From a virus, in the IMG/VR virus record IMGVR_UViG_3300043409_001318, positions 1 to 64,000 of that record: a stretch of 64,000 nucleotides of DNA; one strand, written 5' to 3'. This document shows, piece by piece, positions 3 through 63,176 of the stretch; within the stretch, counting starts at the first letter, position 1, and each line of letters starts with the position of its first letter. The notes below the pieces were generated by a model. It worked only from the letters and a program-made list of their open reading frames with translations. It had not been told where the DNA came from and did no database searches. Both the position numbers and the translations under genes were made by a program.

Positions 3-665
3 TCTCCTTTATATTCTGGTCTTGTTTTAGATTTAAAAAATGAAGATAAAACAAGTGATAGAACAAAACAAGTTAATTATTTAGAAGATCCAAACTTTGA
101 ATTCTTTGTTAAGAGAGTAGGGGAATATGGTTTTAAAGTAGACAAGAATATACCTTGGCGTATTGTATTTGATATTGAATCAATTAACGCAAGAAAGTAT
201 TTAGAACCATATGGATTAACAAACGTAAAACAATTTTTTGAAAAGTTCTATCAAAAAACAATTAATTTAGAATTACGATTAATACAAGAAGAAATCATAA
301 GAAGTTATAATGATTTTGTTAAATATAATCCAAAATACATAGAAGTAGTTAATTGCGAAGATATAGTAAAATATAGATTACCTTTAATAATAGAACAAGT
401 AAATATAGATGCTTATGAGTTAAGATGGAATAAATTTCATATGTTCTTAAAATTAAAAGAATTAAATATGATTAATAGTGAAGAAGAATACACTAAACAT
501 ATGAATAATCTTTCTCAAATATATTTTAGTGATAAAACAAGATTAACAGAATATGTTGAGAAAGAAACTAAATTTCTTAAAGCAAATGGATCAAATCCAA
601 AACTTTCTGCTGATTTTGGCTTGACCAGTTCCAAGGTTGATAGTAAACTCTACATCAAGTTCTAA
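3..665 (+). CDS. 5'-truncated conserved phage hypothetical protein
   Basis: The frame of ORF 441..665 is open back to position 3 (SPLYSGLVLDL...DPNFEFF...YGFKVDKNIPWRIVFD); the true start lies outside the window. Confidence 0.75.
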   Translation, partial: SPLYSGLVLDLKNEDKTSDRTKQVNYLEDPNFEFFVKRVGEYGFKVDKNIPWRIVFDIESINARKYLEPYGLTNVKQFFEKFYQKTINLELRLIQEEIIRSYNDFVKYNPKYIEVVNCEDIVKYRLPLIIEQVNIDAYELRWNKFHMFLKLKELNMINSEEEYTKHMNNLSQIYFSDKTRLTEYVEKETKFLKANGSNPKLSADFGLTSSKVDSKLYIKF

Positions 666-5955: not shown

Positions 5956-7086
5956 ATGGCTAGAAAATCTACAACTCAAACAACGACAAATGGTAAGCTA
6001 TCAATAGCTCAGTTAAGAGAGGCAATTAATAAGAAAGCGGGAATTGAAGTATCTTTTGATCTTTTAGAACAAAACCCCTCGGAAGTAGTTGAATGGATAC
6101 CAACAGGATCAGATGTTCTAGACTCAATTATTTGTAGAGGTAAAAAAGCTGGTATACCTGTTGGACGTATTACAGAATTGGCTGGTATTGAATCATCTGG
6201 TAAATCTTATTTTGCCGCACAAATAGCAGCTAATGCACAAAAAATGGGAATGACGGTAGTATATTTTGATTCGGAGTCAGCATTAGATCCTGCCTTTCTT
6301 TCAAAAGCAGGTTGTAATGTTGGAGAAATCATTTACACTCAAGCGATGAACATAGAGTTTGTTCTTGAAACTATCGAACAACTTCTTGGAGAAGGAGAAC
6401 ATTTCTTATTTATTCTTGACTCATTTGCTTTTACTCCTTCTCTTGCCGATCTTGAAGGAGATTTTAATCCACAATCTTCTATGGCTGTAAAACCAAGAAT
6501 TATGGCTAAGGGTCTTGCTAAACTTATTCAACCAATCGCAAATAAGAAAAGTTCGTTTCTTGTTCTTAATCAATTAAAACAAAACATTGTAATGGGACCA
6601 ACCGCTCATGTAGAAATGATGATAAACCCATACATTACTCCGGGTGGAAAAGCATTATCTTATTCATATTCTCTTAGAATTTGGCTTACACCTAAGAAAA
6701 GCAAAGCAAGTTTTGTTGTATCGCCAACTGGTTTTAGAATTGGATCAGAAACAAAATGTGTGTTAAAGAAATCAAGGTTTGGTACAGAAGGAAGAGAATG
6801 TTCGCTTAAACTTTTGTGGGGTGGAGAAAAGATTGAAGTATCCGATCATGAAGCTTGGCTTGATGTTCTTTCTAAATCCGATAGAGCCACAAGTGGAGCA
6901 TGGTGGAAACTTACTCTTCTTGATGGAACTACCAAGCAATTTAGATCAGCAGACTTTTCTAATGAACTTCAAAACCAAGATTTTAGAAATGCTGTTTTAA
7001 GTATTGTAGAAGAAGAACTTATTACTAAATTTGATAAACAAACGGGTAATGCTTCTAACTATTATAATATAGAAACAGAAGATTAA
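5956..7086 (+). CDS. recA: RecA/UvsX recombinase
   Basis: IPTGS, Walker A GIESSGKS, FDSE, LNQL, TPGGKAL, KKSRFG. Confidence 0.95.
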   Translation: MARKSTTQTTTNGKLSIAQLREAINKKAGIEVSFDLLEQNPSEVVEWIPTGSDVLDSIICRGKKAGIPVGRITELAGIESSGKSYFAAQIAANAQKMGMTVVYFDSESALDPAFLSKAGCNVGEIIYTQAMNIEFVLETIEQLLGEGEHFLFILDSFAFTPSLADLEGDFNPQSSMAVKPRIMAKGLAKLIQPIANKKSSFLVLNQLKQNIVMGPTAHVEMMINPYITPGGKALSYSYSLRIWLTPKKSKASFVVSPTGFRIGSETKCVLKKSRFGTEGRECSLKLLWGGEKIEVSDHEAWLDVLSKSDRATSGAWWKLTLLDGTTKQFRSADFSNELQNQDFRNAVLSIVEEELITKFDKQTGNASNYYNIETED

Positions 7087-50013: not shown

Positions 50014-50303
50014 TGCGCTGGAGATATGGAATAATTAAAGATACAAAAAAGCATAAATCAAAAGAATACACAGAATATTTTATTGGTGAAGTATATTATA
50101 CTGATGATCCAAATAAAGCAACAATGTGTTCCGGTGAAGGATATTTCCCCAGCATTGAAGAAGAAGCAATACCTCAAACAGAAGAACAAATTATTGAAGG
50201 ATTTAAGAAAGAAATCCAAAAGATTTTAAATGATATTGAAGGCAACAAAATAATTGATGCTGATGGTCCATTTGATAGATTGAAGAAGAAAGAAAGACCT
50301 TGA
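50013..50303 (+). CDS. Hypothetical protein
   Basis: TAATG-coupled; WRYGII...IGEVYY. Confidence 0.6.
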   Translation: MRWRYGIIKDTKKHKSKEYTEYFIGEVYYTDDPNKATMCSGEGYFPSIEEEAIPQTEEQIIEGFKKEIQKILNDIEGNKIIDADGPFDRLKKKERP

Positions 50304-53652: not shown

Positions 53653-54481
53653 AAATGGTAACTGTTTGGAAGTTATTAAAAATCATCAAGATGAAAGTTT
53701 TGATGCCTGTATAACTGATCCGCCATATGGTATGGGAATGGAATTTTGGGATCATTCAGTACCATCTGTAGATATTTGGAAAGAAATTTATAGGGTATTA
53801 AAACCCGGTTCTTTTTGTCTAGCTTTTTGTAGCCCTCAATTATACCATAGACTAGCTCTTAACATAGAAGATGCTGGTTTCAAAATTCAAGATCAAATTA
53901 TGTGGATGAGCACTACCAAAATGCCAAAAGTAAATAAGCTAAAACCAGCTCATGAACCTATTGTTGTAGCTCAAAAACTTTTTAGTGGAACTATAGAAAG
54001 CAACTTTAATAAATATGGAGTTGGTAAAATAGATATTGAAAGTGTTAGAATACCTTGGGATAAAGAACCTCCTAAAAATTGGGTAGCACAAGGTTCTAAA
54101 CGTAGAACTTTTGGGAAGCAAGGTAATACAAAAGGTGGTGCTGATATCTATGGAAAGGTGGATGCTAATATTAACGGAAGATACCCTTCTAATATTGTTG
54201 GCGAAACTCTGTCTGAACATCAAAAATATTTTTATGCTCCAAGAGTAACATCAAAAGAAAGACTAGAGTTTAACGATCATCCAACTCCAAAACCAATTAG
54301 CTTAATGGAATATCTAATAAAGATTTATTGTCCAAAAGATAAACTAGTATTAGATCCTTTCTGTGGTAGTGGCTCCACAGGTATTGCCGCTCTCTTAAAT
54401 GAAAGAAATTTTCATGGTATTGAAATGGAACAGAAATATTGTGAAATAGCAGAAAAGAGAATAGAAAACTATCTAAATTAA
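53633..54481 (+). CDS. beta-class N4C/N6A DNA methyltransferase
   Basis: ITDPPY, HPTPKP, VLDPFCGSGST. Confidence 0.93.
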   Translation: MNSYKIENGNCLEVIKNHQDESFDACITDPPYGMGMEFWDHSVPSVDIWKEIYRVLKPGSFCLAFCSPQLYHRLALNIEDAGFKIQDQIMWMSTTKMPKVNKLKPAHEPIVVAQKLFSGTIESNFNKYGVGKIDIESVRIPWDKEPPKNWVAQGSKRRTFGKQGNTKGGADIYGKVDANINGRYPSNIVGETLSEHQKYFYAPRVTSKERLEFNDHPTPKPISLMEYLIKIYCPKDKLVLDPFCGSGSTGIAALLNERNFHGIEMEQKYCEIAEKRIENYLN

Positions 54482-54542
54482 AAGAAGATTTAATTAAAAC
54501 ACCCCATTTAAAATCTGTTTAATATAAATTTAAATTAATAAT

Positions 54543-54580
54543 AAAACCCCTTAATCACAAAATGGTTAAGGGGTTTTTCT
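54543..54580 (+). terminator. Rho-independent terminator (possibly bidirectional)
   Basis: AAAACCCCTTAATCA/TGGTTAAGGGGTTTT. Confidence 0.8.
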
Positions 54581-54591
54581 TTTTATCCCCC

Positions 54592-54619
54592 TTGACTTCT
54601 TCTTCAGCCACGATAAGAT
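54592..54619 (+). promoter_or_regulatory. sigma70-like early promoter
   Basis: TTGACT-N16-TAAGAT. Confidence 0.6.
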
Positions 54620-54625
54620 TGAAGC

Positions 54626-54826
54626 ATGATGAAAAGAAAGAACAGGTTTGATGTTGGAGACATTATCAAATTTAATTCTACACATGATTTGTCTAGTTAT
54701 TATTATCTAATTGTAGGAGAAGAAACAGAGAATTATTCAGACAATTATTTAGTTCTTTGCTTTGGTGATGGTTATGAATATCCTCTTGAAAAAAGCAACT
54801 CTCACTTCTATGATAAGGTGTCCTAA
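54626..54826 (+). CDS. SH3/KOW-like microprotein
   Basis: RFDVGDIIKF...KVS*. Confidence 0.65.
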   Translation: MMKRKNRFDVGDIIKFNSTHDLSSYYYLIVGEETENYSDNYLVLCFGDGYEYPLEKSNSHFYDKVS

Positions 54827-55050
54827 TGCTTCAAATTGGTGATTTGGTTGAATTAGTAAAACATATTGCTCTAAAAAATCAAGACCGCTATAAGGCTGAC
54901 CAACTCTATAAACCTTCTAATGTTTATGGACTTATTACTAAAATCTCCAGCGGTTATTATGATAACAAAGTAAACTATTATACCGTTATGTGGCTTACAA
55001 CGGGCGATAGTTATAAGTATGAAGCAGAAGAATTAGTAAAGGTATCATAA
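54826..55050 (+). CDS. SH3/KOW-like microprotein
   Basis: MLQIGDLVELV...YGLIT...YTVMW...KVS*. Confidence 0.7.
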   Translation: MLQIGDLVELVKHIALKNQDRYKADQLYKPSNVYGLITKISSGYYDNKVNYYTVMWLTTGDSYKYEAEELVKVS

Positions 55051-55253
55051 TGAAGTATAAAATTGGTGATATTCTTTGTTATGAAGATAAATTTGAAAAT
55101 ACTATTGTTGGTTCAGTACATTTTCTTATTACTGATGTGGATGTGGACGAAGTGCTATATTATTTTATGTGTCTTGATGAAGAAGTTGATCCAAATGCGT
55201 CATATAGTATAACTTTTGTTGATAGTTCCCCAAAATGGAGGAAGGTATCATAA
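55050..55253 (+). CDS. SH3/KOW-like microprotein
   Basis: MKYKIGDIL...KVS*. Confidence 0.7.
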   Translation: MKYKIGDILCYEDKFENTIVGSVHFLITDVDVDEVLYYFMCLDEEVDPNASYSITFVDSSPKWRKVS

Positions 55254-55459
55254 TGAAGTATAAAATCGGAGATATCTGCTATTATCGTGGATATCTCGCA
55301 AAAATTCCAAAATATGTTTTAATTGTTGATGAAGTAAGAGAGGGTCTTAAAGAAATGATATTTTTGGAAGATGGTTATAGATTTGTCGGCAAAGAACTTT
55401 ATTTATTGCCCCTTGACTTCCTTCGAAAGATTGATAAGGTAGAAGAAGAGGAAGCCTAA
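55253..55459 (+). CDS. SH3/KOW-like microprotein
   Basis: MKYKIGDICY...PLDFLRKID. Confidence 0.7.
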   Translation: MKYKIGDICYYRGYLAKIPKYVLIVDEVREGLKEMIFLEDGYRFVGKELYLLPLDFLRKIDKVEEEEA

Positions 55460-55683
55460 TGTTCCAAATTGGTGACCTTGTTCAAGTGAAAACACGCCTC
55501 AAAAACGATGCAGATAATCGACAATTAGTAGGAATTGTTGAAAGTGTTGTAGACGGTAAAGTTGGCGTTCGTTATTTAAATACTAATGACTTTGGATTTC
55601 ATATTTATAGTGGTATTACAGTTTACACAAATCCCCTTGACTATCTTCGAAAGATTGATAGTATTGTTGAAAAGGTAAAGTAA
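55459..55683 (+). CDS. SH3/KOW-like microprotein
   Basis: MFQIGDLVQV...VGIV...PLDYLRKID. Confidence 0.7.
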   Translation: MFQIGDLVQVKTRLKNDADNRQLVGIVESVVDGKVGVRYLNTNDFGFHIYSGITVYTNPLDYLRKIDSIVEKVK

Positions 55684-55684
55684 A

Positions 55685-56011
55685 ATGGAAATCCCCCTTA
55701 CTTATTCTTCGCAAGCAGTTAAGGCCCGTGGAAATAATATTAATGAGAAACTACAATATCTTATTAATTGGTATACAAAAACAGGTAAGGATATTGAACC
55801 TTCTTGGGAATTTCAACGAGAACTTATGGAGTTTACAAAGCATTGGACTTTTGGACTTATCCAGCTTATGCGCGAAACTCCCGAAGAAACAAAGGAAGAA
55901 ATTATTAATCATCTACCGGATATTGAATATGTAATAATGAATTCTAAAAAGTCAGCTAATACGGTAGGTGCTATGTATCTTTATTGTGAACTACAAAATA
56001 TTGTGAGGTAA
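55685..56011 (+). CDS. Hypothetical protein
   Basis: AAGGT RBS. Confidence 0.6.
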   Translation: MEIPLTYSSQAVKARGNNINEKLQYLINWYTKTGKDIEPSWEFQRELMEFTKHWTFGLIQLMRETPEETKEEIINHLPDIEYVIMNSKKSANTVGAMYLYCELQNIVR

Positions 56012-56012
56012 T

Positions 56013-56210
56013 ATGATTTTTTCTCTTTTAATTATGTCTATTGGTTTTACCGCTTTTTGTATTCTCCATGAGGAAATCCCACCAAAAAAGCAAATTGTTC
56101 TTAAAATTCCAATCATTCCTGTTGTTGTCGATTTGATAGAAGATGATTATGTTTCAGATCCCGAAGAGATTGATCCTCCAACAATGATAATGCCAAGGAA
56201 GCAAAAATGA
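56013..56210 (+). CDS. Small membrane protein
   Basis: GAGGT RBS; N-terminal hydrophobic helix. Confidence 0.5.
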   Translation: MIFSLLIMSIGFTAFCILHEEIPPKKQIVLKIPIIPVVVDLIEDDYVSDPEEIDPPTMIMPRKQK

Positions 56211-56434
56211 AGTTGACTGAATATCTAAATAATTCTATCACCGATGAAACTTCTGTAATTTTTGGAAAGTTTGGAGCAATTGAAAGTTTTAATTTAAATC
56301 CTAATGAAAAAGTAAAAGTTCTTACTCAAAAGATTATGAGGGACAAAAAGTATTTCTCAATCGATACCTTGACGGTCAACAAGAGTGGAGATATCTTGTT
56401 GATTGAAAGCGGAGATAAGAAGTGGGTGCCGTAA
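56207..56434 (+). CDS. Hypothetical protein
   Basis: ATGA overlap. Confidence 0.5.
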   Translation: MKLTEYLNNSITDETSVIFGKFGAIESFNLNPNEKVKVLTQKIMRDKKYFSIDTLTVNKSGDILLIESGDKKWVP

Positions 56435-56634
56435 AGTTTAATTATGGGGATCTTGTCACCATTCAAGTAAATTATAGTAAATCTAATACTAATTTTGCGC
56501 GTCAAGGCTCCATAGGAATTATTATTGAACCAACAAAAGATTATACTCGCGGTTCTAATGTTGTGAAGGTATTTGGTAGTGATGATGAATGGTATCTTAG
56601 AAATAATGAAATGGATCTTCTTCATCGTGCTTGA
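56422..56634 (+). CDS. SH3/KOW-like microprotein
   Basis: KFNYGDLVTI...IGII. Confidence 0.6.
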   Translation: MGAVKFNYGDLVTIQVNYSKSNTNFARQGSIGIIIEPTKDYTRGSNVVKVFGSDDEWYLRNNEMDLLHRA

Positions 56635-56684
56635 CGGCTAAACGATAATGGTGATATACTTTTGGTTGAGAGTGGAGAACAAAG

Positions 56685-56909
56685 ATGAGTTCCCTAAAAT
56701 ATGCTGCTGGTGATATTGTTGTAAACTTTAATATTGGTGATATTGTTATTGTTAACTCCGAAGCATATGAAGAAGCTTTTGTAGGTGAAATAGGATATGT
56801 AGCATCAATGCCTTATCTATCTTTTTCATATATTACGTTTTTTAGTGATCCAGAACAAGAGATATTGTTTAAGAACTCCGAAATCTTTCTTAAACCTCTT
56901 GACGGCTAA
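56685..56909 (+). CDS. SH3/KOW-like microprotein
   Basis: FNIGDIVIV...GEIGYV. Confidence 0.6.
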   Translation: MSSLKYAAGDIVVNFNIGDIVIVNSEAYEEAFVGEIGYVASMPYLSFSYITFFSDPEQEILFKNSEIFLKPLDG

Positions 56910-56944
56910 ACAACAACAGGCTAAGGTATAAGCATCGGAGGAAA
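56899..56944 (+). promoter_or_regulatory. Promoter-RBS cassette, copy 1
   Basis: TTGACG-N17-TAAGGTATAAGCATCGGAGGAAA; last 23 bp identical at 61502-61524. Confidence 0.7.
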
Positions 56945-57258
56945 TGATGATGAATAACCGTCCCGAAATTGGCGATATGATTATGCTTCTTCGTCCCGAA
57001 ATCCGCGAACTTCCTCCCAAGGTTCGTCGTGGTCGTCCTCCCAAGGTTCCGCGTATTGAAACGGAAACTACTTGGCACGACGACGTTGAAGCAATCATTC
57101 TTAGTGGTCCTACGCAGGGAATTTCGTCCGATGGTGAAGATTATTGGCTGGAGTGGTTGACCCAGCGACTTGACAACGGAAAGAAGTGTGTTATTAGTAG
57201 TGGCGGCAGAGGATACATGAGTAATACCTTCCGTATTGTGCGAAGGGCAAATGAGTGA
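56944..57258 (+). CDS. SH3/KOW-like protein with inserted AT-hook-like motif
   Basis: RPEIGDMIML...RRGRPPK. Confidence 0.6.
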   Translation: MMMNNRPEIGDMIMLLRPEIRELPPKVRRGRPPKVPRIETETTWHDDVEAIILSGPTQGISSDGEDYWLEWLTQRLDNGKKCVISSGGRGYMSNTFRIVRRANE

Positions 57259-57455
57259 AGAAATTTGTAAAGAATAGTGTATGGTTTGCTTCACCAACCA
57301 ACGAAACCAAACCATTTTATTTTATTGTAATTCGTCCTCGCCCTATGGATATGAAGATTTCTATTTACAATTTTGATAGTGGCGAAATCAAAGAAAACTA
57401 TTATTTTAAATATGAAGAGATGGACCTAAATTATATCTTGACGAGGATTGACTAA
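57255..57455 (+). CDS. Hypothetical microprotein
   Basis: GTGA overlap. Confidence 0.5.
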   Translation: MKKFVKNSVWFASPTNETKPFYFIVIRPRPMDMKISIYNFDSGEIKENYYFKYEEMDLNYILTRID

Positions 57456-57655
57456 TGCGAAAGTTCTTTAAGGATGTTGTGCTTGGCGATATTCTAATTT
57501 CAAAGCAGAGTATCAGCGGTATTAACTTTGTTGGAGTTGTTGAAACTATCGAACATGCACCAAAGCAATCTGTATCGATTAGAACTTTTCGCGAAGGCAA
57601 GACTTATATTATTCATGGTTCTTCAATTGGAGATACATGGGAAATTGTGACGTAA
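57455..57655 (+). CDS. SH3/KOW-like microprotein
   Basis: VVLGDILIS...VGVV. Confidence 0.55.
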   Translation: MRKFFKDVVLGDILISKQSISGINFVGVVETIEHAPKQSVSIRTFREGKTYIIHGSSIGDTWEIVT

Positions 57656-57673
57656 ACAATAAAGGAAATTAAC

Positions 57674-57880
57674 ATGAAACTAATGCATGGTGATATACTT
57701 GTATACAAAAGTAATTTGTTCTTCGTTCTAAACCCTTCTCGTTTAGTATATGATGATGGTTCTTTTTTAGTGCTCGTCCAAAATTTAGAAGATAGTGGAG
57801 ATTTTAGAAACATTAATTCTACATACCATCTTGACAGCGGTATGTGGACCCGATACAATAACCAAACAAAGGAGAACTAA
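57674..57880 (+). CDS. SH3/KOW-like microprotein
   Basis: MKLMHGDILVY. Confidence 0.55.
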   Translation: MKLMHGDILVYKSNLFFVLNPSRLVYDDGSFLVLVQNLEDSGDFRNINSTYHLDSGMWTRYNNQTKEN

Positions 57881-57881
57881 A

Positions 57882-58088
57882 TTGACTTTCCGTGGCTTTT
57901 TCAATGATGATGCGAAGAGTGATAATGATAGTGATGTGATTATTTGTTCCGTTCATGGAGAATACCCAGCTTCTATGAAGGCTTTTGGGTGTCCCGAATG
58001 TGTTAAGGAAGCAGAAGACGAAGAGCAAGAAGAAGAAATGCTTAATAAGTCTAAAATTGCTCGCTTTAATACTCCAAGGAAGCGATAA
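57882..58088 (+). CDS. Small Zn-ribbon-like protein
   Basis: GGAG RBS, TTG 57882; CSVHG...CPEC. Confidence 0.5.
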   Translation: MTFRGFFNDDAKSDNDSDVIICSVHGEYPASMKAFGCPECVKEAEDEEQEEEMLNKSKIARFNTPRKR

Positions 58089-58252
58089 TGCCTATTTACA
58101 ATGATTTAACTGAAAAAGAAATAATCCAAAATCTTGTTGAAGATAAGATTTTACTTGAAGCAAAAGTAAAGCAGTTAGAAGCAGAAGTAAAAGGTCTTAA
58201 ACAAACAGACAGAAAATCTAAAATTATTCCTATCTACAATTTGGGAGATTAA
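58088..58252 (+). CDS. Small coiled-coil protein (not in track)
   Basis: MPIYNDL...LEAKVKQLEAEVKGL; TAATG overlap. Confidence 0.5.
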   Translation: MPIYNDLTEKEIIQNLVEDKILLEAKVKQLEAEVKGLKQTDRKSKIIPIYNLGD

Positions 58253-58292
58253 TCAAAAGCATCAAATATTTAATTGATTTTGATGCTTTTGA
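58253..58292. repeat. Perfect 14-bp inverted repeat
   Basis: TCAAAAGCATCAAA/TTTGATGCTTTTGA, upstream of ACTATTTA at 58304. Confidence 0.8.
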
Positions 58293-58330
58293 CGTAGTTT
58301 AAAACTATTTATTTCATAGGAGAAAATTCT

Positions 58331-59035
58331 ATGGAAGAAAATATAAAACTAAAAGAACAAAAAAAAAGATGGTATCAAGCCAATAAAGAACGGCTCAATC
58401 AAAAACAAAAAGAGCGTAACGAAGTCAATAAAGAACTAATAAGAGAAAGAAAAAAAAGATACGGGCAAGAAAATAAAGAAAAGATTTCAAATTTTAAAAA
58501 AGAGTGGTATCTTAAAAACAAAGAGAGAATTTTAGAAAATAGAAAAGAATATTATGAAAGTAATAAAGAACAAATAACTAAATATAAAAAAGAGTGGCAT
58601 CTAAAAAATAGACCAAAACGCTTGTTAGAGTTTAAAAGATATAATGAAGAAAACCAAGATAAAATTAAACAACAAAAAGCAATTTACAAAAGTAAATATC
58701 CAAACAAAAACAAAGAAAGTTCTTCTGCGTACAGACGTAAATATTTTGATAAGTTTAAAAGATATAGTATTACAAAATATGGGATTACGATTAAACAATA
58801 TCAAGATTTATTAGATAAACAATTACATAAATGCTATATATGTAAAATTGAAACCAAGAAGAACGGAAGAAGGTTATGTATAGACCACGATCATATTAAT
58901 GGTAAAGTTAGGGGTTTGTTGTGTAATCTTTGTAATTCCATATTAGGCTACGCAAAAGATAATATTGAAATATTACAAAACGCAATAAAATATTTACAAG
59001 AACCTCCATTCCAATCGGTTGACGAGGTAAAGTAA
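58331..59035 (+). mobile_element. EndoVII-type HNH homing endonuclease with N-terminal repeats
   Basis: CYIC...CIDHDH..GKVRGLLCNLCN; about 15-aa K.WY..NKE repeats. Confidence 0.85.
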
Positions 59036-59053
59036 ACAGATTAAGAGGTTTCT

Positions 59054-59254
59054 ATGAACGACCGAACCCTTTATGAATTCCAAATTGGGGATATTGTAGC
59101 CCATCGCATGAATGAGAATTTGACGGGGATCGTTCTTGAAACCAAATTTCTAAATCATAAAGATAGAGAAATTCTTTATATTTGTTGGTTTGCCGAAGGT
59201 CCAGCATCTAAAAAGCGTTATCCAGCCGCACATATCGTAAAGGTATCGTCGTGA
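59054..59254 (+). CDS. SH3/KOW-like microprotein
   Basis: FQIGDIVAH...TGIV...ICWF...KVSS*. Confidence 0.7.
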   Translation: MNDRTLYEFQIGDIVAHRMNENLTGIVLETKFLNHKDREILYICWFAEGPASKKRYPAAHIVKVSS

Positions 59255-59448
59255 AATATGAAATTGGGGATATTGTAAGATTGAAAGATACTAAGTTAAT
59301 TGGTATTGTTTTAGATTTTCACTTAGAACCAAATTCATCTTCAATTTTTGACGCTCAATCTTATCTTGAAATTCTTTTATTTCATAATAATATTTCCATG
59401 AAATATACATATTTTCCCCATTATGATAATTTTGAGAAGATATCATAA
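59251..59448 (+). CDS. SH3/KOW-like microprotein
   Basis: MKYEIGDIVRL...IGIV...KIS*. Confidence 0.7.
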   Translation: MKYEIGDIVRLKDTKLIGIVLDFHLEPNSSSIFDAQSYLEILLFHNNISMKYTYFPHYDNFEKIS

Positions 59449-59469
59449 ATTTTTATAGGAGAAACTAAA

Positions 59470-59550
59470 ATGTCTGTTGATCCTTTTTTGATTGTAGTTT
59501 TTTTAGGTTTTTTCTTCGCTATCTATTCTGCTGCGAAACTTCGTCTTTAA
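59470..59550 (+). CDS. 26-aa single-TM microprotein (not in track)
   Basis: AGGAG RBS; MSVDPFLIVVFLGFFFAIYSAAKLRL. Confidence 0.45.
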   Translation: MSVDPFLIVVFLGFFFAIYSAAKLRL

Positions 59551-59602
59551 CCCTTGCGCTCTTCCTACAACCCGTTAAGATTAGTTTGAAGAGAGGAAGA
59601 AA

Positions 59603-60223
59603 ATGAAAGGCTATCGTCGTCAGTCTAAATGCTCTTTCTGCTCCACCGTGGGTCATAATCGACGGGGCTGCGAATTATTTAAAAGTTCCAGAAACCAAAT
59701 TGTAGAGAAATATAAGATTTTCCGTGCAAAATGGTGGGAAGCTTACAAAGATCTTCCTTATGGCTATGGAACTATTTACGAACACGCGCTTGGAAGTTAT
59801 TGCCACAACGAAAAAGGACAATGGACCCGTTGCGAAGTTAATAATCTACTTACCGATACCATTGTGGGTATTATGCTTCCAAGCCTTATTAATGAAAGCG
59901 GAAATCTTATTGTTTCGGCTTTTTCTAATATTGAAGATAAAAGTAAGCACAATTATATTGAACTTCCTTTTGTTAAGGGATACATTACGGAATACTCCCG
60001 CAGAATAAACTCTCATGGATTTACTTATTGCGCTTTTCAAGAACCTTTTGAGAAGAATATTCTTTCTTTTGGAGCGACCCTTGCGGAAAGTGTAGACCGG
60101 GATAAGCTGAAGGAGTGGTTGGAAGCCGAAGATCTTCACAAGTCTTATAGGTTTATGGACCCTTCAACTTCTTACGATAATCTTATGGAAGGTTATGGAA
60201 TGAATACTGAAATCGTCGGGTAA
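59603..60223 (+). CDS. CCHC zinc-knuckle protein
   Basis: CSFCSTVGHNRRGC. Confidence 0.7.
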   Translation: MKGYRRQSKCSFCSTVGHNRRGCELFKSSRNQIVEKYKIFRAKWWEAYKDLPYGYGTIYEHALGSYCHNEKGQWTRCEVNNLLTDTIVGIMLPSLINESGNLIVSAFSNIEDKSKHNYIELPFVKGYITEYSRRINSHGFTYCAFQEPFEKNILSFGATLAESVDRDKLKEWLEAEDLHKSYRFMDPSTSYDNLMEGYGMNTEIVG

Positions 60224-60288
60224 AAGAAACTTGAAATCGTCCTTGACGGTGGACTTCAACGGGTTAATAGTAGAAGACAAGGGAGGAA

Positions 60289-61023
60289 ATGATGGGATCG
60301 TGCCGTTTCTGTGGAAGCAAAGGACATAATCGTAATGGTTGCCCCGATGTTGCGGCTCACGCTGCCAGCGGCAAGGCAAAGATCGTAGAAGGACAGGATC
60401 GCTATTCTCTTGATTGGAGGGAGCGTTTCGCGGTTTCTATCCAAGAGAACAAGGCTACCCGTTCTGCTCGTGTATCTACTTCTCCTCGCAAGTGTTCCTA
60501 TTGCTCCGTAGCGGGTCATACGCGCGCAACCTGCACTACTCTTGTTGAGGATCGGCAAGCAGCTTTCAATCACGAAAAGACGTTCCGCACTAATTTTGTG
60601 AATTGGGTTGCTAATAGCGGAATTGGTATTGGAACAATTCTAACTCGTCAAATGTGGGATAATACAGAGTTTTCGCTGCTTGTGCTTGGTGTGGATTACA
60701 AAACAATCAATATTTTGAATACTCATGGAAGTAATGTTATTCGCGCGCAGTATCTTAATCGTGTTGGTTGGGAAAATGAGGTAGGAAATTACAATATTGC
60801 TCCAATTAAATCTTTTGGGTTTGAAATTTCCGCTCCTGCTTCTTCCGTTCCTGTTCCCGAAAGTTTCCTAAATGAAGAAGTAATTAAGAATTTGGTTGAT
60901 GGTTGGTTTGATGGAAAAAGCACGCGCTCTTCTCGTTGGGATAATTATAACGCTGGTTGTTTCCGCGTAGGTCGGCCCGATCTTACGGATTTGAGCGAGA
61001 AGGCAAAGATTTACGCAGTTTAG
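60289..61023 (+). CDS. Protein with two CCHC zinc knuckles
   Basis: CRFCGSKGHNRNGC and CSYCSVAGHTRATC. Confidence 0.75.
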   Translation: MMGSCRFCGSKGHNRNGCPDVAAHAASGKAKIVEGQDRYSLDWRERFAVSIQENKATRSARVSTSPRKCSYCSVAGHTRATCTTLVEDRQAAFNHEKTFRTNFVNWVANSGIGIGTILTRQMWDNTEFSLLVLGVDYKTINILNTHGSNVIRAQYLNRVGWENEVGNYNIAPIKSFGFEISAPASSVPVPESFLNEEVIKNLVDGWFDGKSTRSSRWDNYNAGCFRVGRPDLTDLSEKAKIYAV

Positions 61024-61032
61024 AAATTATTT

Positions 61033-61069
61033 AGCCCTCCTTGACTTCCGGGTCTTGGAGGGCTAATCA
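61033..61069 (+). promoter_or_regulatory. sigma70-like promoter with the -35 enclosed in a hairpin
   Basis: AGCCCTCC-TTGACT...-GGAGGGCT; TTGACT-N17-TAATCA. Confidence 0.55.
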
Positions 61070-61086
61070 TTAGTGGGAGACGAAAA

Positions 61087-61299
61087 ATGAAGTTCGATGT
61101 TGAAGAAGCAATTGAAGAAATCCTTGTCGAAGGTTTTAGCGAGGGAGATCTTTTGCGAGCGGTCCTTGCAGTTCTTCCAAAAAGTGATATTGCTGAAATT
61201 CTAAATTCAGCCGAAGAACACCTTTTTGCTGGTAAGGAAGAAGAGGAAGAAGATTGGGATAGCGACGAAGATCAAATTGACGAGGAAGAAGAATTCTAA
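61087..61299 (+). CDS. Very acidic microprotein
   Basis: E/D-rich; GGGAG RBS. Confidence 0.6.
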   Translation: MKFDVEEAIEEILVEGFSEGDLLRAVLAVLPKSDIAEILNSAEEHLFAGKEEEEEDWDSDEDQIDEEEEF

Positions 61300-61490
61300 T
61301 GCTTAACGTCGGAGATCTTGTTGAAGTAATTTACAGGCAAAATAAACCTGCGATCATAATCTCCATTTTTAAGGAAAGAGACAATAAAGATAAATTTAAA
61401 GAACTGAAAACTTATTATGTCGTTAAACATTTTGAGGATGAAGGAACAGGAGAATGGTTGGAAACTTCGCTCCGACGCTTGACGGCTTGA
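61299..61490 (+). CDS. SH3/KOW-like microprotein
   Basis: MLNVGDLVEV...YYVV. Confidence 0.65.
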   Translation: MLNVGDLVEVIYRQNKPAIIISIFKERDNKDKFKELKTYYVVKHFEDEGTGEWLETSLRRLTA

Positions 61491-61524
61491 AAGCACAAGG
61501 ATAAGGTATAAGCATCGGAGGAAA
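61479..61524 (+). promoter_or_regulatory. Promoter-RBS cassette, copy 2
   Basis: TTGACG-N17-TAAGGTATAAGCATCGGAGGAAA. Confidence 0.7.
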
Positions 61525-61527
61525 GAA

Positions 61528-61824
61528 ATGGCTGGTGAAAGACTTTGCGGGAATTGTGGTGAGCCTAACCATAACCGGCGCACTTGTAAAAACCTCGCAA
61601 AAGCTCCAGCCGTAAGGGAGGTCGCCCCTTTTCCCCAAATCCCTGCTATTCCTTTTAAGCAGGTTGAACGGGTAGAATATGAGGGTGACCTCCCGATAGT
61701 CGATATGACGCCTTGCCTTCTTCGACTAAAAGGTTATACCCAAATCTGTTCGGGGTCGTTCCGTATGACCGTTCCCGATGATACCACCTTCGATCAAATC
61801 TCTAACTATGTCTTTTGGAGATAA
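61528..61824 (+). CDS. CCHC zinc-knuckle protein
   Basis: CGNCGEPNHNRRTC. Confidence 0.7.
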   Translation: MAGERLCGNCGEPNHNRRTCKNLAKAPAVREVAPFPQIPAIPFKQVERVEYEGDLPIVDMTPCLLRLKGYTQICSGSFRMTVPDDTTFDQISNYVFWR

Positions 61825-61825
61825 T

Positions 61826-62044
61826 ATGCGAGAATACCAGCGGTTCAACCTTGGAGATATTGTCAAGCATAAGTATCAAAATAATCATGGTTATATTTTT
61901 AAGGTTCATAGTCCATATTATGCCGTGCTTAACCCTCACAACGAAGCTTATACGGTTATATGGTTTAACGAAGACCTTAACGACCGTCTAAGGTATGGAT
62001 ACGATCAAATCGAACTTGGCGATATTATCGTAAAGGTGTCCTAA
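61826..62044 (+). CDS. SH3/KOW-like microprotein
   Basis: RFNLGDIVKH...YTVIWF...KVS*. Confidence 0.7.
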   Translation: MREYQRFNLGDIVKHKYQNNHGYIFKVHSPYYAVLNPHNEAYTVIWFNEDLNDRLRYGYDQIELGDIIVKVS

Positions 62045-62235
62045 TGTTCCAAATCGGTGATATTGTTGAACTTTATAACTCCGAAGAAGATAAAGTTCAT
62101 ACAGGTATGATATCTTCCAATATTATGGCTTCTACTTGGCATGATGAAGAAGAAGAATATTATAAAGTTGTTTGGTTTGATGAAAAAAATTCCTTGACGG
62201 AAGAACATTATTCTAATCTTGAAAAGGTATCCTAA
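62044..62235 (+). CDS. SH3/KOW-like microprotein
   Basis: MFQIGDIVEL...YKVVWF...KVS*. Confidence 0.7.
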   Translation: MFQIGDIVELYNSEEDKVHTGMISSNIMASTWHDEEEEYYKVVWFDEKNSLTEEHYSNLEKVS

Positions 62236-62393
62236 TGCTCCAAATTGGCGATATCGTAAATTTTAGTTATCTTACGGGTTTTGTAGTAAAACTTGACAAA
62301 GATCATTTTTGGATTAAGTGGTTTGATCTGGAAGAAGAATATGCTTATCATCTTTCCCAAGAAACACTTTTTCTAATCAAAAAGGTATCGTAA
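62235..62393 (+). CDS. 52-aa SH3/KOW-like microprotein (not in track)
   Basis: MLQIGDIVNF...IKWF...KKVS*. Confidence 0.7.
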   Translation: MLQIGDIVNFSYLTGFVVKLDKDHFWIKWFDLEEEYAYHLSQETLFLIKKVS

Positions 62394-62563
62394 TGTTTCA
62401 AATTGGTGATATTGTAATGATGGAGGAAGATAAACAAGAGGGAGAAATTTACGGATATGTGACCGAATTTGAAGAAGAAACCCTTTATCTTTGCGTTTCT
62501 TGGTTTGACGGGCAAAAAAGCATAGAATTCCCTAATCATGTGAAAAAGGTAGAAAATGGCTAA
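62393..62563 (+). CDS. 56-aa SH3/KOW-like microprotein (not in track)
   Basis: MFQIGDIVMM...YGYV...VSWF...KKVENG*. Confidence 0.7.
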   Translation: MFQIGDIVMMEEDKQEGEIYGYVTEFEEETLYLCVSWFDGQKSIEFPNHVKKVENG

Positions 62564-62804
62564 ACTTCCCGATTACATCGACAAAACCGATAAACGTGCT
62601 ATTGCTGAATACTTCATAAAGCAACGAGAACTTCAAGAATATGAGAAATATTATCTTGAAGCAATAAATAATCTTGAAAAGCCATATATCGACCTTTATG
62701 GAGATTTTAACCGGTATACTACCGAAATTGGGGATCATCTTATCTCGCAAGGCTGGAAGGTTGAGAATATAGCCCTTCTTACTTGGAGAATTTGGAAACC
62801 TTGA
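62556..62804 (+). CDS. Hypothetical protein
   Basis: AAGGT RBS. Confidence 0.55.
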   Translation: MAKLPDYIDKTDKRAIAEYFIKQRELQEYEKYYLEAINNLEKPYIDLYGDFNRYTTEIGDHLISQGWKVENIALLTWRIWKP

Positions 62805-62860
62805 AAAGTTCCTTGACGCTTTAGAACAACAGGTTAAGTAGAAAACCCCAAGGAGAACAA

Positions 62861-63016
62861 ATGACCGACCTTTTCATGGAAATCCTCAACCCTACGCTTG
62901 AACCTGTTTCCTCCGATTATCAGTTGACGGACGAAGAAGCAGATGCTATGGTGAATGATGATGATGCCCTGCTAATCTTCGCTGCTTCTGTCTACCCTCA
63001 CATTTTGTGGAATTAA
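62861..63016 (+). CDS. 51-aa acidic microprotein (not in track)
   Basis: TTGACG promoter at about 62813; AAGGAG RBS. Confidence 0.55.
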   Translation: MTDLFMEILNPTLEPVSSDYQLTDEEADAMVNDDDALLIFAASVYPHILWN

Positions 63017-63041
63017 ACTAACAACTTTTTTTGGAGTTAAA

Positions 63042-63176
63042 ATGTCTGCTATCGAACGCTATTATTCTACACTTTCTCCTATGGGACCGTGGTGCGCTGA
63101 AGATGAAGATGATACTACCCCTATGAGCGAGGAAGAAATCGCTATTGCCTATGAAGTAGCGATGCAAGACTTCTAA
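63042..63176 (+). CDS. 44-aa acidic microprotein (not in track)
   Basis: GGAG RBS; EDEDD...SEEE. Confidence 0.5.
   Translation: MSAIERYYSTLSPMGPWCAEDEDDTTPMSEEEIAIAYEVAMQDF

Follow-up and report, generated by a model that had tools for sequence, protein, structure and literature searches.

Locus and microprotein family

We analysed the first 64 kb (64,000 nucleotides, hereafter the window) of the IMG/VR virus record IMGVR_UViG_3300043409_001318, which is 184,352 bp long and rated complete. The window contains tandem arrays of small genes, referred to here as cassettes, and several of these genes are chained to the next one by the same 14-nucleotide (nt) joint, AAGGTRTCNTAATG (Table 1). An earlier inspection of the DNA letters (the sequence-only reading) had reported six copies of this joint and one variant; exact searches of the window and of the whole record confirmed the six, and the variant is likewise present. 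The six copies lie on the plus strand only, and the 184,352-bp record contains none beyond them. In dinucleotide-preserving shuffles the mean was 0.01 matches, and none of 100 shuffles reached six. The joint had been described as combining a C-terminal KVS, a ribosome-binding site, a stop and an overlapping start, and this holds for all six copies: each consists of the codons Lys-Val-Ser followed by TAA, the last A of TAA opens the ATG of the next small open reading frame (ORF), and a Shine-Dalgarno (SD)-like AAGG lies within the last codons. The variant encodes Lys-Val-Ser-Ser, and a GTG start overlaps its TGA stop. The joint is wholly coding, with a 1-nt overlap between adjacent genes and a shared stretch of 14-39 nt. 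Four of the six copies are continued by YTYCAAATYGGYGAT (at 54829, 62047, 62238 and 62396) and the remaining two by AAGTATAAAATYGGWGAT (at 55053 and 55256), which encodes MKYKIGD; the latter two copies are identical over 25 nt.

A motif scan of the genome revealed about 30 paralogues of the cassette proteins, 52-90 amino acids long, which start with M-x-x-(I/V)-G-D-(I/L)-(V/I) and end with h-x-K-V(-S). They form clusters at 49.6, 54.6-57.9, 59.0-59.4, 61.3-62.6, 67.7-70.5, 74.5 and 76.7 kb, and the arrays lie in what looks like an early region. In an alignment of 30 members, the G and D are nearly invariant and a central WF and the K-V end are apparent, and the paralogues are 13-36% identical to the reference cassette. 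An AlphaFold2 model based on the family alignment confidently predicts a small beta-barrel (predicted local distance difference test score, pLDDT, 89.6). The top PDB neighbours found with Foldseek were Tudor, chromo, KOW and PWWP domains, R67 DHFR, the C-terminal Tudor domain of PcrA and the N-domain of CdnL, with template modelling (TM) scores of 0.6-0.8 (TMq up to 0.81) but E-values of just 0.05-0.14. The predicted fold class is thus SH3-like, with the five strands of a small barrel, and no function can be deduced from this fold. Among ten cassettes compared with curated families, one scored 21.4 bits for SH3-C_UBE2O (cut-off 21), and no match was obtained for the other nine; four PHROG families of unknown function were each matched by one member only. 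A profile search of 1.84 billion representatives returned 360 clusters at E <= 0.001, nearly all of them stand-alone proteins of 50-70 amino acids. A few two-domain fusions of the family are also present among metagenome representatives (P0014, P0084, P0032 and P0125), as would result from the loss of the stop codon at a joint.

Table 1. Features of the cassette arrays and their surroundings
Feature	Position	Strand	Basis or remark
Terminator-like hairpin just upstream of array 1	54543..54577	+	15-bp stem, then T-run
Early-promoter-like module (CCTTGACT, N16, TAAGAT), would drive array 1	54590..54621	+	one of a family of ~25 modules
Cassette a1, predicted SH3-like microprotein, KVS end	54629..54826	+	ORF, family motif, alignment
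Joint 1, AAGGTGTCCTAATG	54815..54828	+	exact search
Cassette a2, 74 amino acids	54826..55050	+	93% identical to L097 orthologue
Joint 2 with left copy of the 25-nt exact direct repeat AAGGTATCATAATGAAGTATAAAAT	55039..55063	+	exact search, repeat comparison
Cassette a3	55050..55253	+	203 bp (55039-55241) precisely missing from lake contigs X2 and X4
Joint 3 with right copy of the 25-nt repeat	55242..55266	+	exact search
Cassette a4, tail PLDFLRKIDKV with promoter-like module at 55411	55253..55459	+	motif scan
Cassette a5	55459..55683	+	swapped for 191 other letters in X2 and X4 (55436->55673)
Endonuclease VII-family gene between arrays	58331..59035	+	Endonuclease_7, Pfam E = 1.7e-24
Cassette with KVSS end	59054..59254	+	orthologues provide a natural test of the AAG codon
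Variant joint AAGGTATCGTCGTG, GTGA overlap	59240..59253	+	sequence
GTG-start cassette	59251..59448	+	missing in L096, L097, L098, L092 and L101
Cys/His-knuckle gene, conserved left border of array 3	61528..61824	+	comparison of relatives
Cassette a of array 3, 72 amino acids, MREYQRFNLGDIV...VKVS	61826..62044	+	missing in L090, L093, L091, L096, X2 and X4
Joint 4	62033..62046	+	exact search
Cassette b	62044..62235	+	missing in L093 and L091; first 27 nt are those of cassette c in relatives
Joint 5	62224..62237	+	extra cassette c exactly here in L090 and L094
Cassette d	62235..62393	+	comparison of relatives
Joint 6	62382..62395	+	exact search
Cassette e, 8-nt overlap with next gene	62393..62563	+	ORF list, relatives
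Conserved 82-amino-acid gene, right border of array 3	62556..62804	+	comparison of relatives

Cassette content in related contigs

Close relatives were traced through flanking genes, with the conserved 82-amino-acid gene at the right border of array 3 as the anchor, and comprise one IMG/VR contig (L087 = L088 = L097) as well as a dozen contigs from freshwater metagenomes. When IMG/VR was scanned for the joint combined with the IGD pattern, only one contig other than that of the phage itself came up. In addition, assembled contigs from four independent lake metagenomes were aligned to positions 54400-63100; the X5 contigs span only parts of this region, and gaps in them were not read as absence. 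The cultured-phage database gave no match in a megablast search with the 8.1-kb region or in a tblastn search with the 429-amino-acid neighbour protein. Eighty loci anchored on the neighbouring methyltransferase gene, which is ~65% identical (L007-L086), contained neither the joint (0/80) nor the KVS*M pattern (0/80) and were set aside as too distant to inform.

The slot between the orthologues of the genes at 61528 and 62556 has nine architectures in 13 contigs, with eight cassette types and one to five cassettes per slot. Among these, the order is a b d e in the window, b c d e in L090 and L094, c d e in L093 and L091, b c in L096, f g in L097, L095 and L101, h f c c g in L098, f c g in L099 and L100, and f in L092. 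Array 1 and the array at 67-70 kb vary likewise among relatives, and for the cassette a2 orthologue in L097 it is the termini that differ (MINEPQIGD... and ...KVIE). The arrays are thus not invariant. The sequence-only reading had proposed gain, loss and reordering of cassettes at the junction; gain and loss of whole cassettes ending at joints are indeed found, but reordering was rejected, since cassettes at other positions in relatives are just 36-45% identical and are therefore paralogues and not moved copies.

The variation within the slot invites comparison with the genomic accordions of poxviruses, in which the copy number of one gene expands. Both involve a tandem array that changes length by recombination between copies, but here the copies are old and divergent. 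A recent tandem duplication as the origin of the cassettes was rejected, as no near-identical copies were found. Because the paralogues are this old, the variation consists of the loss and exchange of long-established cassettes and not of recent amplification.

Breakpoints and the possible role of shared sequence

A comparison of the window with L090 by blastn, in which the flanks are 97-99% identical, resolves two of these events. Homology ends at 61826 and is found again from 62043, with another switch at 62257/62233; the two sequences therefore differ by cassette a precisely from start to start, and cassette c is inserted precisely at joint 5. Cassettes b and c of relatives begin with the same 27 nt, ATGTTCCAAATCGGTGATATTGTTGAA, and the remainder of both genes differs; the deletion of cassette b in L093 and L091 therefore lies between direct repeats. 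In contigs X2 and X4, which derive from two lake studies, 55038 is joined to 55242, and 25 letters at this junction fit either side. These correspond to the repeat flanking cassette a3, which includes the 14-mer. The same contigs lack cassette a (61826->62043, 216 skipped) and the endonuclease gene, and their a5 is replaced between two AAG|GTA sites. Breakpoints hence do not avoid the junction, as cassette indels end at joints in the window/L090, L093/L091 and X2/X4 comparisons. Long-repeat joints and microhomology joints are found next to each other in one slot, where a quantitative comparison of the two would be possible.

Based on these comparisons, we propose, with a probability of roughly 0.6, that the element is a translational-coupling joint of a paralogue array whose shared sequence, together with the conserved 5' codons, would channel homologous or microhomology recombination into insertions and deletions of whole cassettes. 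Alternatively, descent and selection might suffice: the paralogues would have retained a conserved C-terminal strand, random illegitimate recombination would leave survivors with whole genes, and the joint would have no role in recombination. In the absence of intergenic spacing, however, random events would need nucleotide exactness, and the best-resolved events lie between perfect repeats. Furthermore, a breakpoint signature of +23..27 on the left and -1..-2 on the right recurs. In a rough census of 190 breakpoint positions at seven loci, 23% were located <= 5 nt from a start codon compared with 4% of random positions, and 60% were located <= 30 nt away compared with 21%. Lastly, the 590-nt block of cassette d, cassette e and the anchor is 98.6% identical between the window and L090, and three of its eight differences cluster in the first 24 nt of cassette e (62393-62416; L090:817-840). 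All three are synonymous and two of them make e identical to the 5' ends of b and c, which is suggestive of a short gene-conversion tract (p ~0.01 allowing for three candidate windows).

Several observations weigh against a recombination role of the joint. The percentages of the census are not independent, since some events were counted in several pairs, and breakpoints near start codons are also expected from selection alone. Several boundary events with a non-paralogous flanking gene share AATG/AAATG only, and for these microhomology plus selection for intact genes is enough. Precise indels occur also at cassette/anchor and Zn-gene/cassette borders, where 4-5 nt are shared, and for most mosaic joints of phages, illegitimate recombination is the explanation preferred in the general literature (PMC3029335). 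The N-terminal codons point in the same direction. At the codons around G-D, in the N-terminal half, 29 paralogues from this genome were compared pairwise wherever the amino acid was the same, with a prediction based on the codon usage of the cassette bodies: 48.0% of pairs used the same codon, compared with 51.5% predicted (simulation p = 0.83). As N-terminal synonymous sites match this prediction, they give no general indication that recombination keeps the joints uniform. The eight genes downstream of KVS-type joints gave 56.7%, compared with 51.4% predicted (p = 0.22). A DNA-level repeat at the 5' ends of the cassettes as a general rule was therefore rejected, and the N-terminal extension is conserved as protein only. 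The sequence-only reading had noted an identity extended to about 29 bp; this extension is present after four of the six copies but is explained by the conserved peptide and strong codon bias, because synonymous identity is not above expectation. Nor is pairwise identity at the third positions of the Val and Ser codons of the joints. In view of the evidence on both sides, we regard descent and selection without any contribution of the joint as a possible but rather unlikely explanation.

Codon choice and predicted translational coupling at the joints

The third positions of the KVS codons, which the sequence-only reading had suggested comparing with synonymous expectation, gave a divided answer: Val and Ser, as stated above, show no excess, but the Lys codon is AAG in six of six joints (seven of seven with the variant), compared with a usage of 25% in long genes genome-wide and 33% in cassette bodies. 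The Val codon is never GTT (0/6 compared with 53% usage), and TCT and AGY are likewise absent as the Ser codon (0/6). The G+C content at third positions of the last four cassette codons is 0.40-0.52, compared with 0.23-0.25 in gene bodies. Genome-wide, G occupies 24.7% of the third positions of the last four codons before a coupled gene (next gene starting within -5..+3 nt) and 14.2% before an uncoupled one (>= 25 nt away; p = 0.0013), and the difference remains when the KVS genes are left out (p = 0.012). An SD-like 4-mer is found upstream of 72% of the cassettes and 61% of all ORFs, compared with 11-13% of random positions. Orthologues of the 59054 cassette offer a small natural test of the Lys codon: AAG is present in the window, L093, L092 and L098, all with a gene starting in the overlap, whereas L096 and L097 have no coupled gene and end in AAA GTA TCG TAG. 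L101 is an exception, as its orthologue is uncoupled yet AAG is kept. The bias of the C-terminal tail fits a putative SD site embedded in the upstream gene and argues for selection at the nucleotide level.

Translational coupling through overlapping stop and start codons (UAAUG, AUGA) is known from bacterial and phage operons such as the trp operon. The joints have the same geometry, with a 1-nt stop/start overlap and a putative SD inside the last codons of the upstream gene, and together with the raised G content before coupled genes this is in line with the earlier proposal that they would serve in coupling, which is the natural reading of their sequence. Genome-wide, 24 stop/start overlaps are of the TAATG type, eight of which lie in the arrays, and 20 are of the ATGA type. 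What differs from an ordinary coupled operon is that the SD-bearing codons of the joint (coupling being predicted) double as a conserved structural strand, and the same joint recurs because the partners are paralogues.

One might also speculate that the motif is kept for an RNA structure, in which GGUAUC of the Lys-Val-Ser codons would pair with GAUAUY of the Gly-Asp-Ile codons and hide the SD until a ribosome on the upstream gene opens it. A 6-bp pairing around UAAUG does appear in the folds of four of the six joints, but the energies are no better than those of shuffled sequences, and GTG-type joints and the QRA and KRV joints of relatives are unable to pair, so that we give this idea hardly any credence.

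In sum, the 14-mer can be put down to the structural K-V(-S) end, to selection that favours AAGG as an SD site and to a stop/start overlap of a common kind. It is not a special site but the C-terminal strand (h-x-K-V) of a protein family joined to a genome-wide TAATG habit. Relatives use joints of other sequence, AGAGGGCATAATG and AGAGGGTATAAATG, with the same outcome, and joints such as ...CAGAGGGCATAATG (QRA tail), ...AAGAGGGTATAAATG (KRV tail) and TAA-ACC-ATG all behave alike. Because other SD-bearing tails and also promoter modules act as joints in the same region, the 14-mer has no privileged role. In L092 and L098, the same 14-mer joins the 59054 orthologue to an unrelated ORF of 27 amino acids. 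Micro-ORFs of 26-27 amino acids that resemble membrane peptides lie downstream of 59054 orthologues at 59470-59550 in the window, L092:254-337 and L098:6766-6849.

Promoter-like modules and comparison with known shuffling systems

The sequence-only reading had pointed to the promoter early stem-loop (PeSL) repeats that drive modular shuffling in T4-type phages. By definition, a PeSL lies between genes and spans ~100 bp; it comprises a sigma-70 promoter with an AT-rich region upstream and a hairpin that acts as terminator, and it ends in an SD and a start codon (PMC2839356). PeSLs flank ORFans that differ between close T4-type relatives and form mini-circles (Arbiol et al. 2010, PMC2839356; Comeau et al. 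2014, PMC4122927). Both elements are short repeats at gene boundaries in a hyperplastic early region that end in an SD and a start codon, both flank small ORFs differing in close relatives, and for both it is proposed that recombination between copies deletes or inserts an ORF. However, the joint consists of 14-39 nt of coding sequence, is not intergenic and has neither promoter nor hairpin, and PeSL mini-circles have been shown physically, whereas the joints are known from assembled contigs alone. A promoter scan of the six joints gave one weak match ending beside a joint (54786-54814, 10/12) and none at the other five. No terminator-like site was found at any of the six, nor was a stable hairpin or inverted repeat (fold z-scores -0.05 to -1.5). 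As the two have no more in common than the SD/start end and the differential ORFs at their flanks, the joint is not a PeSL. The joint as a -10 box was also rejected: the phage promoters end in TAAG(T/G/A), similar to AAGGT, but only 54811 has TAAGGT and no -35 box lies beside the joints.

The genome does contain about 25 promoter-like modules, all on the plus strand between 48.5 and 72 kb, with the sequence CCTTGAC(G/T)-N16-TAAG(T/A)AGA followed by AAGGAG...ATG (examples at 50298, 54590, 56367, 60241, 61039, 62811, 63661 and 63888). Two such modules bracket array 3 (61528-62804), in which six genes follow each other with zero intergenic bases, and the modules at 50298 and 64142 agree almost completely over ~52 nt. 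In L090, L093 and L091, a gene of 167-177 amino acids sits between two promoter modules; the window instead has a single chimeric module (62811-62860), in which the crossover falls within CTTGACGCTTT. This exchange is PeSL-like shuffling, and the CCTTGAC modules are the true PeSL-like elements of this phage. In two cassettes, a promoter-like module lies within the codons of the C-terminal PLDFLRKID extension (55409-55451 and 55633-55675). Perhaps a regulatory element is here translated into a peptide, or vice versa.

Integron cassettes, which rely on attC sites and the integrase IntI, resemble the arrays in that small promoterless genes are gained and lost as units; here, no integrase or attC-like folded site is present and the cassettes all belong to one protein family. 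A dedicated system of the integron or PeSL mini-circle kind, with the joint as a specific site at which cassettes are excised and re-inserted as circles, would account for exact units of gain and loss, for eight types sharing one slot and for the 14-mer preceding the unrelated ORF in L092 and L098. We consider such a system very unlikely, as joints of differing sequence work equally well, the promoter and hairpin searches at the joints gave the results described above, and the complete 184-kb record has no match to the tyrosine integrase family PF00589 (control genomes were positive). A contig joint that goes back by 224 positions (62254->62031), the sole one of its kind, was rejected as a circle signature, since the b-c-d architecture gives the same pattern when aligned to the window. 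The process is probably ordinary short-homology recombination and not a dedicated cassette machine.

Short conserved boundary sequences, or linkers, have been proposed to guide homologous recombination at phage mosaic joints; the equally old counter-view is that illegitimate recombination plus selection suffices (both reviewed in PMC3029335). The joints resemble linkers in that short shared sequences lie exactly at module borders, with the exchange points within them. Linkers are not findable at the mosaic joints of most phages, whereas here a single gene family provides them systematically through its conserved termini. The locus fits the boundary-homology idea for the best-resolved events and illegitimate recombination plus selection for others, and the joint is a coding-embedded variant of known phage modular shuffling.

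Proposed mechanism

In the mechanism favoured here, that is a coupling joint whose shared sequence channels recombination, the joint is the border between consecutive genes of a tandem array of predicted SH3/Tudor-like microproteins in the early region of an uncultured freshwater phage. Three functions would be overlaid in it: Lys-Val(-Ser) closes the last beta-strand, AAGG acts as the SD for the next gene and TAATG overlaps stop and start. To judge by their sequence, the cassettes would be translated as coupled members of short operons. Because genes without spacers share the joint and the MFQIGDIV codons, every boundary offers 5-39 nt of in-register homology. Whole cassettes could then be deleted, inserted or replaced start-to-start when boundaries undergo general recombination or slippage, be it inside one genome or between relatives during co-infection. 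The RecA/UvsX-like recombinase encoded at 5956-7086 (PF00154, E = 3.8e-36) could participate. Sequence comparison shows the pattern of indels, and the enzymology and rates behind it are inferred.

As a natural example, the locus shows cleanly that phage genes packed this tightly can still be exchanged as whole units: the same short sequence forms the end of a protein, would recruit the ribosome to the gene that follows and supplies in-register homology for recombination. It bears on the debate whether phage mosaicism arises from short boundary homology or from illegitimate recombination and selection. In addition, at least 30 early microproteins of unknown function show a rapid turnover in presence and absence, a pattern typical of genes engaged with host defences. 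It could even be that the conserved ends of the family are kept partly as recombination joints, as a coding-embedded counterpart of PeSLs and integron sites, and that lake-wide phages trade SH3-like early proteins, perhaps binders for host takeover or counter-defence, as plug-in cassettes, possibly via circular intermediates. We regard this extension as doubtful.

Neighbouring genes

Three paralogous knuckle proteins with the pattern C-x2-C-x3-GH-x4-C are encoded at 59603-60223, 60289-61023 and 61528-61824 and form the backbone between the arrays in all relatives; Pfam gave weak zf-C2H2_10 matches below the cut-off for the three. The N-terminal half of the endonuclease VII-family gene between the arrays is made of 45-nt repeats. 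The gene occupies four different sites in the window, L092, L097 and L098, and is missing in L093 as well as in X2 and X4. Probably the product is a mobile, free-standing nuclease, and it could act as a seed for recombination in the surrounding DNA.

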